From: a virus
Lineage: Duplodnaviria; Heunggongvirae; Uroviricota; Caudoviricetes
DNA: 19,276 nt
Direction: 5' to 3' (one strand)
IMG/VR virus record: IMGVR_UViG_2617270963_000006
This document shows positions 6,196-12,668 of this stretch, one piece after another. Each line of letters begins with the position of its first letter. Position 1 is the stretch's first letter. The position numbers and the translations under genes were made by a program. The notes under the pieces are model-generated. The model did not search any database, was not told the origin of the DNA, and was given only the letters and a program-made list of their open reading frames with translations.

Positions 6196-6492
6196 ATGTC
6201 ACAAACAAGTTACAGCAAACTGTCACAGCGCGATATCGATCGCGCTGAAACGGATTTACTTATCAACCTGTCAGCTCTGACGCAAAGGGGACTGGCGAAG
6301 ATGATTGGCTGCCATGAATCGAAGGTCAGTCGTACCGACTGGCGATACATCGCGGCGATTTTATGCGCGTTCCAGATGGCATCTGATATCAGTCCGATCA
6401 GCCGGGCTTTCCAGCATGCCATTAACGTTCATGCAAATAAAAAACGTCCGGTTGGGGCCGGACGTTCTGAGCAAATCCTGATGAACATCTGA
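6196..6492 (+). CDS. cII: CII-like transcriptional activator (98 aa)
   Basis: C-terminus NKKRPVGAGRSEQILMNI resembles the lambda CII C-terminus (NKKRPAATERSEQIQMEF, recalled); central HTH; position after cro and nutR. Confidence 0.7.
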   Translation: MSQTSYSKLSQRDIDRAETDLLINLSALTQRGLAKMIGCHESKVSRTDWRYIAAILCAFQMASDISPISRAFQHAINVHANKKRPVGAGRSEQILMNI

Positions 6493-6562
6493 TATTCAGG
6501 CAGGGCATGGAGCAATACACGGGAATAATTCTGCCACATCTGGAAGAATTTCGCCAGCAACA

Positions 6563-6621
6563 ACACCAACCGCAGCAGCCTGAAGCCGATTGGGTTAACC
6601 CGGAGATACCGGGACCGTCTG
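6563..6621 (+). repeat. iteron-like direct repeat, copy 1 (about 58 bp)
   Basis: ACACCAACCGCAGCAGCCTGAAGCCGATTGGGTTAACCCGGAGATACCGGGACCGTCTG; a near-identical copy follows at 6653-6712. Confidence 0.6.
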
Positions 6622-6652
6622 TGAAGATGTGCAGTCACACCAATGTGCAGTC

Positions 6653-6712
6653 ACACCAACCGCAGCAGCCTGAAGCCGATTGGGTTAACCCGGGAGATAC
6701 CGGGACCGTCTG
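6653..6712 (+). repeat. iteron-like direct repeat, copy 2 (one extra G relative to copy 1)
   Basis: Direct comparison with 6563-6621. Confidence 0.6.
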
Positions 6713-6745
6713 CGGTATGGAGTAAATCTTGTATGCGAGGGGACT

Positions 6746-7828
6746 ATGCGTAATTACGCAACAATTTCACCTCAGTTCTGGTTAGGCGATACAGGGCGAA
6801 AACTCAGGAAGTCTGGTCCGGAATGTATGGTAGTGGCGTTGTATATGATGACCTCGCCTCATTCCAATATGCTGGGCCTTTATTACCTGCCTGTTTTGTA
6901 CATTGCTCACGAAACCGGACTTGATCCTGAAGGGGCTTCTAAGGGGCTTCAAATGGCTTGCGAGGCTGGTTTTTGCAGCTATGACCATGATTCTGAGGTT
7001 GTATGGGTGCATGAAATGGCAGCATGGCAGGTTGGTGAATCGCTGAAACCTGGCGATAACCGTTGTGCTGGGGTAAGAAATGAATATTCCGCGTTGCTGG
7101 AAAATCCTTTTTTATCATCCTTTTATGATAGATATAAGGATGATTTCCACCTGGATGTCAGACGTGAATCATGTCGGAAAATTGAAGCCCCTTCAGAGCC
7201 CCTTTCAAGCCAAGAACAGGAACAGGAACAAGAACAGGAAAGGGATAAAACCCTTCTGGTCCATGGCGAAAAAATCGCCACGGACCCACAGGGGGATTTT
7301 TGTCCTGTTCTGACTGAACGTCCAGGACCAGCTGGCACGACACCGGAAGCAGATTCCGGGCGTTGTGTGCAGCAGGTGCTGATCGTCGAACCGGAGCAAC
7401 AACGCCAACCGCAGCAGCCTGAAGCCGATTCCGCGATGAGCGGGAAGCCGATTGGGTTAACCCGGGCGATGCCGGGACCGTCTGCGGGACGAGTTGATTA
7501 TCCTGACGTGTTCGAACGGGTCTGGCGTGAATATCCGCATCGGGCAGGGTCAAACCCGAAGAAATCCGCGTTCAATGCCTGGAGGGCCAGATTACGCGAA
7601 GGGGTGTCACCGGATGTCGTGCTGGATGGCGTGAGGCGTTACGCAAGATACCTGGAGGCTACCGGGAAAGCGGGAACTGAATTTGTTCAGCAGGCATCGA
7701 CGTTTTTTGGCCCGAACAGGAATTTCGAAAATCCGTGGTCGCTGCCGAAGGCTGGCGCAGTCAGCCTGCGTTGCGTGAATCACATTTCTGAACCGGACAC
7801 CGAAATTCCGCCGGGTTTCAGGGGGTAA
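6746..7828 (+). CDS. phage replication initiator / replisome organiser (360 aa) with a DnaT-like C-terminal tail
   Basis: ATG at 6746 with GAGGGG upstream. The C-terminal residues SEPDTEIPPGFRG match the C-terminus of E. coli primosomal protein DnaT as recalled (SEPDSQIPPGFRG). It contains a third iteron copy and sits directly upstream of a DnaC-like gene. Confidence 0.7.
   Translation: MRNYATISPQFWLGDTGRKLRKSGPECMVVALYMMTSPHSNMLGLYYLPVLYIAHETGLDPEGASKGLQMACEAGFCSYDHDSEVVWVHEMAAWQVGESLKPGDNRCAGVRNEYSALLENPFLSSFYDRYKDDFHLDVRRESCRKIEAPSEPLSSQEQEQEQEQERDKTLLVHGEKIATDPQGDFCPVLTERPGPAGTTPEADSGRCVQQVLIVEPEQQRQPQQPEADSAMSGKPIGLTRAMPGPSAGRVDYPDVFERVWREYPHRAGSNPKKSAFNAWRARLREGVSPDVVLDGVRRYARYLEATGKAGTEFVQQASTFFGPNRNFENPWSLPKAGAVSLRCVNHISEPDTEIPPGFRG
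7211..7240 (+). repeat. hexanucleotide (GAACAG/GAACAA)n microsatellite encoding a (QE)n linker inside the replication initiator
   Basis: CAAGAACAGGAACAGGAACAAGAACAGGAA translates to QEQEQEQEQE. Confidence 0.6.
7405..7486 (+). repeat. iteron-like repeat, copy 3, interrupted by a 20-bp insertion or partial duplication, inside the initiator gene
   Basis: CCAACCGCAGCAGCCTGAAGCCGATT ... ATTGGGTTAACCCGGGCGATGCCGGGACCGTCTGCG; the internal GAAGCCGATT is duplicated. Confidence 0.55.
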
Positions 7829-7834
7829 TCAGCC

Positions 7835-8575
7835 ATGAAAAACATTTCGACAGGAGGGATTCTTGAACGGGTGCGCCGTCTGGCACCACCGCACGTGGCA
7901 GCACCGTTCCGGACGACCGACGAATGGCGGGAATGGCAACTGGCTGAGGGCCGTAAGCGCAGCGAGGAAATTAACCGCCTGAATCATCAGGCGCGGGTTG
8001 AAAAAATCCTGAACCGTGCGGGCATCCAGCCGCTTCACAGGAAGTGCTCATTCGGGAACTACCGGGTGCAGAACGACGGTCAGCGCCATGCTCTGAGCCA
8101 GGCGAAATCCATTGCCGATGAATTGATGACCGGTTATACAAACTTCGTGTTCAGCGGGAATCCGGGAACCGGAAAAAATCATCTGGCGGCGGCTGTGGGT
8201 AATCGTCTGCTGAATGCCGGTAAATCCGTGATAGTGGTCACCGTGGCGGATGTGATGAGCGCGTTACATGCCAGCTATGACGACGGACTGTCAGGGGAAA
8301 AATTTTTGCGTGAACTGTGCGAAGTGGACCTCCTGGTTCTTGACGAAATTGGCATCCAGCGTGAGACGAAAAACGAGCAGGTGGTACTGCACCAGATTGT
8401 TGACCGCCGGACGGCATCACTGCGCAGTGTCGGGATGCTGACAAACCTGAATCATGCCGCAATGAGCAAGCTTCTTGGTGAGAGGATTATGGACCGGATG
8501 ACCATGAACGGTGGTCGTTGGGTGAATTTTAACTGGGAGAGCTGGCGGTCAAACGTTGGACGTCAGGGTATGTGA
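7835..8575 (+). CDS. DnaC-like helicase loader (AAA+ ATPase, IstB/DnaC family), 246 aa
   Basis: Walker A GNPGTGKNHLAAAVG and Walker B LLVLDEIG in the translation; strong overall resemblance to E. coli DnaC; abuts the stop of the initiator gene. Confidence 0.9.
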   Translation: MKNISTGGILERVRRLAPPHVAAPFRTTDEWREWQLAEGRKRSEEINRLNHQARVEKILNRAGIQPLHRKCSFGNYRVQNDGQRHALSQAKSIADELMTGYTNFVFSGNPGTGKNHLAAAVGNRLLNAGKSVIVVTVADVMSALHASYDDGLSGEKFLRELCEVDLLVLDEIGIQRETKNEQVVLHQIVDRRTASLRSVGMLTNLNHAAMSKLLGERIMDRMTMNGGRWVNFNWESWRSNVGRQGM

Positions 8576-9371: not shown

Positions 9372-9386
9372 TTGCCGGAGGCGCTT

Positions 9387-9782
9387 ATGGCGAAACCTTT
9401 TACACACGAACAGCGGGAAGAACTGAAGGCACGAATTATCGGATTGGTACGCAAAAATGAACGCATGACGATATCGCAACTGGAGAGAGCGACGGGAGCA
9501 GGCTGGCATTCAGTCAGACGTTGCCTTGTGGATGTACTGGCTTGTGGCGATTTATACATGTCCGGTAAATACGGTGTTTTTGCATCAGAACAGGTGTATC
9601 GCGTATGGCGTAAGACACCGGAGAAAACAACTGACCAGACATTGATTCGAAAGTTACCAGACGGAGAAATTCGCCGCTACGATAGACGCCTGAACATAAT
9701 TTGTCGTGAGTGCCGCCAGAGCGAAGTTATGCAGCGTGTGCTGGCTTTCTATCAGGGGAATTTTCAGGAGGCGGTACTGTGA
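9387..9782 (+). CDS. hypothetical phage protein (about 131 aa), HTH-like segment
   Basis: ORF track 9372-9782 (TTG); the ATG at 9387 has GGAG with a 6-nt spacer. Confidence 0.5.
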   Translation: MAKPFTHEQREELKARIIGLVRKNERMTISQLERATGAGWHSVRRCLVDVLACGDLYMSGKYGVFASEQVYRVWRKTPEKTTDQTLIRKLPDGEIRRYDRRLNIICRECRQSEVMQRVLAFYQGNFQEAVL

Positions 9783-11987: not shown

Positions 11988-12305
11988 TCATGATATTACT
12001 TGGATCCCGTTTTTCTCTACGACTGAAAGAAGGCGAAGAGCGGCACCTCCCGGCCGTTTTACACCACGTTCCCAGTCTGATATCAGGTTTTTACTGACGT
12101 TGAGGTATCTGGCAAAAACAGGTTGAGACAGATGCTCTCGTTCGCGCAGTGCACGGATCCTTTCCGGAGACATTACCGGCGCTGGCTGGAGACAAGTTTC
12201 ATCGAATTCTCGCATAGTCTGTTTCGTTACTGCGCCGATATCATGAAGCGATTCCATCATTTCATGTACGGATGCAAGCGCATCACTGCGGTAATTTTTA
12301 CTCAT
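11988..12305 (-). CDS. HTH (XRE-type) antitoxin, HigA/MqsA-like, 105 aa
   Basis: C-terminal HTH (LSQPVFARYLNVSKNLISDWERGVKRPGGAALRLL); GGAGG 7 nt upstream; lies directly downstream of a RelE-like toxin ORF on the same strand. Confidence 0.65.
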   Translation of the reverse strand: MSKNYRSDALASVHEMMESLHDIGAVTKQTMREFDETCLQPAPVMSPERIRALREREHLSQPVFARYLNVSKNLISDWERGVKRPGGAALRLLSVVEKNGIQVIS

Positions 12306-12359
12306 TGGGTACCTCCGTAAACTGACCCTGTAGAATCAGTTGTGCCAGTTGTTCATCTG

Positions 12360-12668
12360 TTAGATTGAGTACGTGAGGAGCCCCTTCCGAAATGCACTTT
12401 CCTCAGTAGCGGTTATATTTTCACGTTCATTTTTTGCGTATGCATATACGAAAAAGGCCCTTGTGCCGACGCGATAGAAAATGATTGTGCGATAACCGCC
12501 AGATTTGCCGCCACCGACTCGTGGCAGACGTTGCTTGATAACGCCGTTACCCAGGTTTGCTGAGATAAGCCCGTTATCAGCCTGTTTAACAATTTCGCGC
12601 AGTGACTGGTCGGATATTTTGTTTTTGTGTGCAAATCGCTCAAACCAGGCGTTTTTAAAAATGCGCAT
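12360..12668 (-). CDS. RelE/ParE-superfamily toxin (HigB-like; toxin-first arrangement), 102 aa
   Basis: Segment GGGKSGGYRTIIFYRVGTRAFFVYAYAKNEREN is typical of RelE/HigB-like killer proteins; followed by the HTH antitoxin. Confidence 0.65.
   Translation of the reverse strand: MRIFKNAWFERFAHKNKISDQSLREIVKQADNGLISANLGNGVIKQRLPRVGGGKSGGYRTIIFYRVGTRAFFVYAYAKNERENITATEESAFRKGLLTYSI

Follow-up and report, generated by a model that had tools for sequence, protein, structure and literature searches.

In phage lambda, the N-terminal domain of the initiator protein O reads repeats lying in its own coding sequence, while the C-terminal end of the protein specifies the loader, P. In the chromosome of Escherichia coli, dnaT stands immediately before dnaC, and the DnaT protein, which is targeted by PriA/PriB at forks, has an N-terminal domain for oligomerisation, a linker docking on PriB and a three-helix domain that binds single-stranded DNA (ssDNA; PF17948). 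A comparable arrangement is present in the Rac prophage of E. coli K-12, in the form of YdaU-YdaV(-YdaW), and no experimentally defined function of YdaU, YdaV or YdaW was found in the literature searched. Finally, Brezellec et al. (2017, PMC5509034) described DopC-DopE, a pair that resembles lambda O/P and has been domesticated; from an HHpred match to 2ru8, a DnaT C-terminal element was reported in the O-like DopC, so that DnaT-derived C-termini on O-like proteins are already present in the literature. Here we analyse a gene pair at positions 6746-8575 of a viral DNA of 19,276 nucleotides (Caudoviricetes; IMG/VR record IMGVR_UViG_2617270963_000006), hereafter the window, in which the gene of a replication initiator is followed by the gene of a DnaC-family AAA+ helicase loader. 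The protein is an origin initiator whose resemblance to DnaT appears to consist of a C-terminal tail of about 24 residues, and across the sampled phages this tail is associated with the type of loader encoded downstream.

By sequence, the nearest characterised neighbour of the pair is Rac YdaU-YdaV, in which gene order and 6-nt spacing are as in the window, with a DUF1627/YdaW-family gene next in both. YdaV is 84% identical to the window loader, while YdaU, which ends in ...VNTVSLPDSAIPPGFRG, has only the tail in common with the window initiator, as its N-terminal domain is DUF1376 and its C-terminal domain is of another kind. The E. coli DnaT-DnaC pair likewise places a tail-bearing gene immediately before a DnaC-family gene, with the tails identical at 15 of 24 residues and the loaders 50% identical. 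However, none of the three parts of DnaT listed above gave a sequence or fold match in the window initiator, which possesses a winged helix and repeats of its own where DnaT depends on PriA/PriB. With lambda O-P, the window pair shares the early-operon position and the presence of repeats in the initiator's own gene beside an AT-rich stretch, a parallel drawn here from sequence patterns. On the other hand, lambda has four 19-bp iterons, whereas the units in the window measure 11 bp and form two clusters separated by about 245 bp; the lambda loader is P, whereas that of the window is of the AAA+ DnaC type; and the window initiator has no Pfam match to Phage_rep_O. DopC, compared by the description in the paper, differs from the window initiator in being chromosomal and in having a P-like partner, and the match reported for it is at the level of a domain, not of the tail motif or of a link to DnaC (PMC5509034).

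In regard to its surroundings, the pair is a known kind of phage initiator-loader module, already annotated in near-identical deposited sequence. Between positions 6400 and 8700, the DNA shares 99.9% identity with Escherichia phage PhiR5_2, and its identity to the Shigella phages POCJ13 and 75/02 Stx is about 94%. The window belongs to a lambdoid, Stx-type phage, and the gene pair is its replication module, located past cI-cro-cII in the early rightward operon. The order in PhiR5_2 is exoVIII, kil, N, cI, cro, cII, a 72-aa hypothetical, 'DNA replication protein O' and 'DNA replication protein DnaC', followed by a YdaW-family gene, LygF, and then NinB, RusA and NinH. Across PhiR5_2, POCJ13 and 75/02 Stx, the initiator has been deposited under the labels 'DNA replication protein O', 'primosomal protein I' and 'DNA-binding protein', the second being given to the first replication gene in the GenBank records of both POCJ13 and 75/02 Stx. 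Since 'primosomal protein I' is the old name of DnaT, the resemblance to DnaT had already been caught by annotation pipelines. The locus as such is therefore routine, the same arrangement being present also in the K-12 Rac prophage.

The initiator gene (6746-7828, plus strand) is an open reading frame (ORF) of 360 aa that comprises a winged-helix N-terminal domain, an acidic disordered linker, a helical C-terminal domain, here called CTD-A, and the DnaT-like tail; its stop codon is separated from the loader start by a gap of 6 nt, in the same frame (TAA TCA GCC ATG). The tail occupies residues 337-360 (7754-7825, plus strand), with its core SEPDTEIPPGFRG at 7787-7825, and was delimited by BLASTP, NCBIfam, profile and codon comparison. 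Its peptide, VNHISEPDTEIPPGFRG, includes I354, P355 and F358 and represents the E. coli DnaT-like form, S-E-P-D-x-x-I-P-P-G-F-R-G, of the C-terminal consensus S-x-P-D-x-x-I-P-x-G-F-R-G. Compared by BLASTP with DnaT of E. coli K-12 (DnaT and DnaC references were taken from NC_000913), residues 337-360 align with DnaT 156-179 at 15 of 24 identical positions (E=1e-7 for the pairwise comparison), 11 of the last 13 residues being identical, and no other part of the two proteins was aligned. Seven of the 15 identical residues are encoded by different synonymous codons, for example Ser by AGC in one and TCT in the other. Furthermore, among 150 distinct tail-coding DNAs all synonymous codons occur at Pro3, Pro8, Gly10 and Phe11, three of the four at Gly13, and Ser1 is drawn from both codon families, TCN and AGY. 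Codon bias is seen only at the last two codons (AGR GGG), which constitute the Shine-Dalgarno sequence of the loader. Because identical residues differ in codon and synonymous codons vary in this way, the match is neither a chance event nor nucleotide carry-over, and the tail is under selection at the protein level. In the host, mean column identity of DnaT across 76 species of Enterobacteriaceae is 0.91 in the tail, 0.90 in the DNA-binding domain and 0.80 in the N-terminal domain, and dnaC starts 2 nt past dnaT in 73 of these species. The end of the initiator had been recognised as essentially the C-terminal tail of DnaT in an earlier sequence-only reading of the window, and in this respect that reading is borne out: the tail is a real, selected element.

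The likeness to DnaT does not seem to reach further. The NCBIfam DnaT model NF002770 matches only residues 337-360 of the initiator and stays, at 15.6 bits, far below its cut-off of 201; PF17948, the DNA-binding three-helix bundle that scores 75 bits with E. coli DnaT and 65 bits with the phage initiator of locus L127, leaves the window initiator unmatched. The PHROG families of the C-terminal half of DnaT and those of the initiator's C-terminal domain show no overlap. At the other end, BLASTP aligned no part of the N-terminal domain of DnaT (residues 1-88) to the initiator, whose N-terminus is a winged helix, and the PriB-docking linker of DnaT has no sequence match in the initiator, its QE-rich linker being not alignable; as this linker is acidic like that of DnaT, it may nevertheless make a putative contact with PriB. 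A profile built from 42 full-length homologues matched 6aep with the whole C-terminal domain aligned (E=3.8e-4), but the match was rejected as an indication of domain homology since it was driven by the tail and was gone once the tail had been removed. Once the tail was left off, the profile of this domain matched no PDB sequences at E<=10. Comparison by hhalign of the C-terminal domain family with true DnaT domains gave a probability of 97.8% with the tail and of 24% without the last 24 residues (29 columns, P=8e-4). A Foldseek search with the C-terminal AlphaFold2 (AF2) model returned no DnaT structure, the best match of any kind having E=1.6. The helices preceding the tail hold at most a faint, unproven echo of DnaT, W...L..G.T.eel....Y..a.GK. 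Alignment of the C-terminal region with DnaT, on which the sequence-only reading had made its interpretation depend, thus leaves a similarity confined to the last 24 or so residues.

PHROG 1701 covers the whole initiator (E=6.5e-152) and 2215 homologues were found, while no Pfam family, including Phage_rep_O and Phage_rep_org_N, matched at E<=0.1. In the AF2 whole-protein model, the N-terminal winged-helix domain (residues ~6-95; 6761-7030, plus strand) has a confidently predicted fold, and it is presumed to be the domain that would bind origin DNA. Residues ~100-250 are predicted to be disordered and include the region of the QE run, where the pLDDT is <50. CTD-A (residues 252-331, about 250-335 in the model; 7499-7738, plus strand) is modelled as three to four helices with a pLDDT of ~74-90, and a model of the C-terminal 116 residues gave four helices with a pLDDT of 74. 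On these grounds CTD-A appears to be a helical, uncharacterised domain that is not detectably DnaT. It is common to DnaC-linked and lambda-P-linked initiators, being conserved to W331 in the latter, and for this reason cannot be the loader-specific part of the protein. When the last 123 aa of the initiator were used by themselves to search the protein collection, 24 near-identical fragments and no added diversity were obtained. As a separate observation, two loci hold replisome organisers with a MASNWIKLE-type N-terminus and a YdaU-like C-terminal domain (L038, 2858-3994; L062, 2864-3994), in which an insertion of ~115 aa is present between the acidic linker and the YdaU-like domain (378 vs 262 aa).

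The loader gene (7835-8575, plus strand) is an ORF of 246 aa, and BLASTP of its product against E. coli DnaC gave 50% identity and 71% similarity across 242 aa (residues 1-241; E=4e-90). The product is collinear with the full length of DnaC, including the N-terminal region that in E. coli DnaC binds DnaB. The protein holds a Walker A motif, GNPGTGKN (residues 108-115; 8156-8179), a Walker B motif, DLLVLDE (residues 165-171; 8327-8347), a sensor-I motif, LTNLN, and, in the Arg-finger region, GERIMDR as the counterpart of GERVMDR in DnaC. Pfam matches are IstB_IS21 and Bac_DnaA. By these signatures it belongs to the DnaC-family AAA+ helicase loaders, as the sequence-only reading had also recognised, noting the intact Walker motifs. 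On PRK12377, the NCBIfam model of the phage/prophage subfamily, it scores 490.7 bits, above the cut-off of 389, whereas on the equivalog model of chromosomal DnaC, NF005931, it reaches 313 bits, below the cut-off of 357, and we therefore regard it as a YdaV-type paralogue and not as chromosomal DnaC.

The relation between tail and loader was followed across phage loci, the sampled loci being redundant and related. In a first set of 80 loci, with loaders 86-100% identical to the window loader, the upstream ORF ends with IPPGFRG in all 80, on at least four N-terminal architectures. A second, unbiased set was obtained with another DnaC-like query, 57% identical to the window loader, and consists of 80 loci with loaders 68-100% identical to that query; here, the tail motif ends the upstream ORF or lies no more than 4 residues from its end, again in 80 of 80, and about 15 different N-termini are represented. 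In both sets together, the tail is thus present upstream of 160/160 phage DnaC-type loaders. It caps at least four C-terminal domains: CTD-A and genuine DnaT domains are among them, along with the YdaU type and a further helical type (WIWGRIV...PNWTAWANDVR).

A scan for the tail itself, made with a DNA pattern that needs TAA or TAG as the stop codon and, four codons ahead of the Ile in I-P-x-G-F, a Pro, and that consequently under-samples variants, gave 120 phage loci, all of them true ORF ends. A DnaC-like gene is adjacent in 65, no DnaC-like gene lies within the stretch fetched in the remaining 55, and a lambda-P-like gene was found in none of the 120. In the loci without a loader, the initiator ORF is intact wherever the contig holds the whole gene, which would fit the use of host DnaC. 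The next ORF in 47 of the 55 is a homologue of window 9372-9782, so that these loci lack both the loader and the DUF1627 gene. In L082, L089, L097 and about 44 further loci, many of them E. coli prophages, this homologue begins 40 nt past the initiator stop.

The opposite situation is seen in four homologues, P0088, P0097, P0098 and P0100, which keep the N-terminal domain, the QE linker and, as far as the invariant W331, CTD-A, and which carry an extension of ~75 aa ending in L-[DE]-x-E-E-W in place of the 27-residue tail. In all four, the gene downstream is of the lambda-P type (PF06992). On otherwise collinear proteins, the C-terminal end of the initiator therefore varies with the loader, the tail going with the DnaC type and the extension with the P type, which on this comparative evidence is the behaviour of lambdoid initiators. 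A tail-less initiator in front of a DnaC-like gene seemed to be represented by P0114, and this candidate was rejected, as the gene is frameshifted and its C-terminal domain and tail lie in another frame. The frameshift of P0114 (L282, 4400-4950, a Klebsiella prophage) is situated at a C-run, ACACCCCCA, just past the acidic linker, with the reading continued to the DnaC-like start, and the broken form occurs in 13 contigs. Another homologue, P0104, was not located on any contig. Seven initiators that precede more distant DnaC-like loaders (29-45% identical) lack IPxGFRG. By eye, several of them end loosely alike, with FIPEDF, PPEGWNQ, LPDWMRGEDE and MPSWAQE (L371, L374, L376, L377), which we take as a lead only; their combination of hydrophobic residue, Pro and aromatic residue is reminiscent of the DnaT tail as well as of the C-terminal tip of SSB. 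Loader columns that co-vary with an R-to-T variant of the tail were also considered, but all 14 belong to one clade and, being phylogenetically confounded, were left unused.

Furthermore, the initiator gene holds repeats that are candidates for its own binding sites. Candidate iteron cluster 1 (about 6930-6950, plus strand) contains AAGGGGCTTC twice with 11-bp spacing, within the EGASKGL codons (residues 62-68) and thereby in the codons of a helix (61-73) that belongs to the winged-helix domain of the initiator itself. Candidate cluster 2 (7182-7211, minus strand) contains the 11-bp unit of AAGGGGCTTC in inverted orientation, and here encodes EAPSEPL. The repeat count of AAGGGGCTTC was reached by none of 200 shuffles. 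In relatives, the motif is found at the same two positions of the gene, both times direct, so that EGASKGL is encoded twice; as the inversion in the window preserves the DNA motif and alters the peptide, it points to selection at the DNA level on cluster 2. A divergent subfamily of initiators has another 11-bp-spaced motif, GAAAGGGTT, at the two cluster positions, and the repeats in the initiator gene thus co-vary with the protein subfamily, from AAGGGGCTTC to GAAAGGGTT, as they do in lambdoid initiators. With its position kept, its inversion survived at the peptide's cost and its switch along with the protein subfamily, the 11-bp motif behaves like an iteron. The composition profile shows an AT-rich stretch between the two clusters (7050-7200, GC 0.38), which by analogy with ori-lambda is a possible unwinding region. 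These patterns make it probable that a group of Stx-type phages has its origin of replication inside the initiator gene.

Directly after cluster 2 follows the (QE)5 microsatellite, (GAACAG)n, which encodes QEQEQEQEQE at residues 156-165 (7211-7240, plus strand) and is reported by TRF as GAACAG x4.5 at 7214-7240. Near-identical phages carry (QE)4, (QE)5 and (QE)6, with protein lengths of 358, 360 and 362 aa, and an acidic QE/QD run is kept in homologues of about 50% identity, P-linked ones included. From this length variation and the predicted disorder, the run is a slippage-prone, acidic, disordered linker, in agreement with what the sequence-only reading had proposed for exactly this position.

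The explanation that, taken as a whole, we consider reasonably probable joins these parts into an initiator with an in-gene origin, whose tail couples it, as by inference it couples DnaT, to DnaC-family loaders. The winged-helix domain would bind the 11-bp AAGGGGCTTC repeats of the two clusters, and the AT-rich stretch between them would open; since the clusters lie in the initiator's own gene and flank that stretch, the origin would be situated within the gene, as in lambda O. The acidic (QE)n linker would join the winged helix to the helical C-terminal domain, and the last ~24 residues, ending in I-P-x-G-F-R-G, would serve as a flexible short linear motif docking on a loader of the DnaC family, which would be that of the phage or, where the phage has none, host DnaC. 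Docking would then deliver the loader-DnaB complex to the opened origin, where the loader would place DnaB, in keeping with the established behaviour of DnaC, which puts DnaB on an opened origin. The gene identities, the domain layout, the reach of the likeness to DnaT, the repeats with their covariation and the association of tail and loader type are results of the analysis, whereas DNA binding by the winged helix, origin function and a physical contact between tail and loader are inferred.

Host DnaT, with a tail of the identical type, would probably make the same contact, and the dnaT-dnaC operon would most simply be a domesticated copy of a phage initiator-loader cassette. Because dnaC has been reported to be a domesticated phage gene (PMC5109545), and because phage initiators with a true DnaT domain and the tail exist in front of a DnaC-like gene (e.g. 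those of the PF17948-positive set), it is probably the host operon that copies the phage arrangement and not the reverse. The sequence-only reading had the phage pair mirroring the host dnaT-dnaC operon; this stands for the gene order, the tight spacing and the DnaC-family loader, but it fails for the initiator, which is no counterpart of DnaT, and its direction is probably to be turned around. Going one step further, the I-P-x-G-F-R-G tail could be the missing element that DnaT and many phage initiators of enterobacteria use to recruit or activate loaders of the DnaC family, and through them DnaB, in which case dnaT-dnaC would be a co-domesticated cassette in which an oligomerisation module stabilised by PriB took the place of the origin-binding domain. 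We put this forward tentatively, with slightly more doubt than confidence. The DnaT tail has been described as a highly flexible segment of 20 residues. In the preprimosome structures of 2026, the C-terminal domain of DnaT was fitted from 4OU7 and covers residues 84-153 only, and the recruitment of DnaB/DnaC 'remains unknown' according to the same paper (PMC13377028). No description of a role for the tail turned up in literature searches on ydaU/ydaV, 'DnaT-like' and the C-terminal function of DnaT.

Several points speak against the coupling of the tail to DnaC-family loaders, or weaken the evidence for it. The authors of the preprimosome structures favour the N-terminal domain of DnaT as the recruiter of DnaB/DnaC (PMC13377028). 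DnaT without residues 154-179 binds ssDNA mildly more weakly, with the dissociation constant changing from 12.9 to 27 uM (PMC4132743), so that a DNA-related role of the tail is possible. The loci are related and redundant; since the tail codons abut the loader gene, some of the co-occurrence is plain linkage, and the last two tail codons double as the Shine-Dalgarno sequence of the loader. The iterons are candidates, their function being drawn from patterns in the DNA. Finally, the 55 of 120 tail-bearing loci that lack a loader fit a tail that binds any host factor, and not DnaC specifically.

Related to this last point, the tail could be a general C-terminal docking motif for some other partner, namely DnaB, the SSB-tip pocket of PriA or ssDNA, with an indirect link to DnaC-type loaders. 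Such a motif would resemble the tip of SSB (acidic-I-P-F). Besides the loader-less loci, this alternative draws support from the loosely similar endings noted by eye in the seven cases with distant loaders, and from the modest contribution of DnaT 154-179 to ssDNA affinity and cooperativity (PMC4132743). However, the tail is exchanged exactly where the loader is of the lambda-P type, with all other domains kept, and a motif directed at DnaB, SSB or DNA should persist with P-type loaders, because these also deliver DnaB. In addition, the motif shifts as the loader diverges, as would be expected of a peptide and a loader that co-evolve. We consider this alternative unlikely.

Even less probable is that the initiator is a functional counterpart of DnaT which engages the PriA/PriB restart primosome, or displaces DnaT, in order to load DnaB, as the sequence-only reading had suggested. 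The common tail, the gene order of dnaT-dnaC and the acidic linker, comparable to the DnaT linker that docks on PriB (PMC13377028), are compatible with such a role. Nevertheless, the N-terminal domain of DnaT is without equivalent in the initiator and its DNA-binding domain was not detected there. In the preprimosome, PriA is contacted by the bundle of residues 84-153 and PriB by the linker (PMC13377028), neither of which is conserved in the initiator, and the acidic QE linker is present also in the tail-less, P-linked homologues. The initiator has instead a predicted winged-helix DNA-binding domain of its own and probable iterons, which indicate origin-dependent initiation, and no pointer to recruitment of PriA/PriB was found either, so that the suggestion is not supported. 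Competition with host DnaT for DnaC is possible. As for the conservation of the tail for nucleotide-level reasons, by hitch-hiking on the ribosome-binding site and translational-coupling signals of the loader gene, the closeness of the stop to the loader start (2-6 nt, or overlapping) and the codon-biased AGR GGG Shine-Dalgarno sequence would agree with it, but it is very improbable given the free synonymous variation at Pro3, Pro8, Gly10 and Phe11, the TCN/AGY switches of Ser1, the intact tail in the 55 loci with no loader gene within the stretch fetched, and a conservation that reaches 13-24 codons upstream, far past a ribosome-binding site.

Other features accompany the replication module. 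Upstream of the initiator gene lies an ORF of 72 aa (6507-6725, plus strand; phrog_2751), the one annotated as hypothetical in PhiR5_2, which consists mostly of two repeats of about 70 nt (6556-6624 and 6646-6715). A third copy is found at 7395-7487, within the linker-coding part of the initiator gene. Each copy contains GAAGCCGATT, GGTTAACC and a CCCGG-N5/6-CCGGG palindrome, and GAAGCCGATT is identical at 8 of 10 positions to the reverse complement of the 11-bp iteron. Judged by this content, the ~70-nt repeats may be extra origin-associated sites or, alternatively, a recombination scar. A perfect 16-nt tandem duplication, ATGTGCAGTCACACCA x2, is situated at 6627-6659, between the two upstream repeats. 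Further along, the minus strand of the window holds two small ORFs (~11988-12668) in the places that are taken in PhiR5_2 by genes annotated as HigA antitoxin and HigB toxin; if this assignment is right, a toxin-antitoxin pair would lie between the replication and nin regions.

The value of the locus lies mainly in the light it sheds on a question of the host, namely the handover from the PriA-PriB-DnaT preprimosome to DnaB-DnaC, which was called unknown in the structural work of 2026. Phages of this kind represent a natural domain-swap experiment, in which the tail accompanies DnaC-type loaders on unrelated scaffolds and is exchanged where the loader is of the P type, and the resulting pattern gives a specific and cheaply testable hypothesis for replication restart. 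It also suggests that dnaT came from phages along with dnaC. For the phages themselves, the analysis flags a probable replication origin inside the initiator gene of a Stx-type group.

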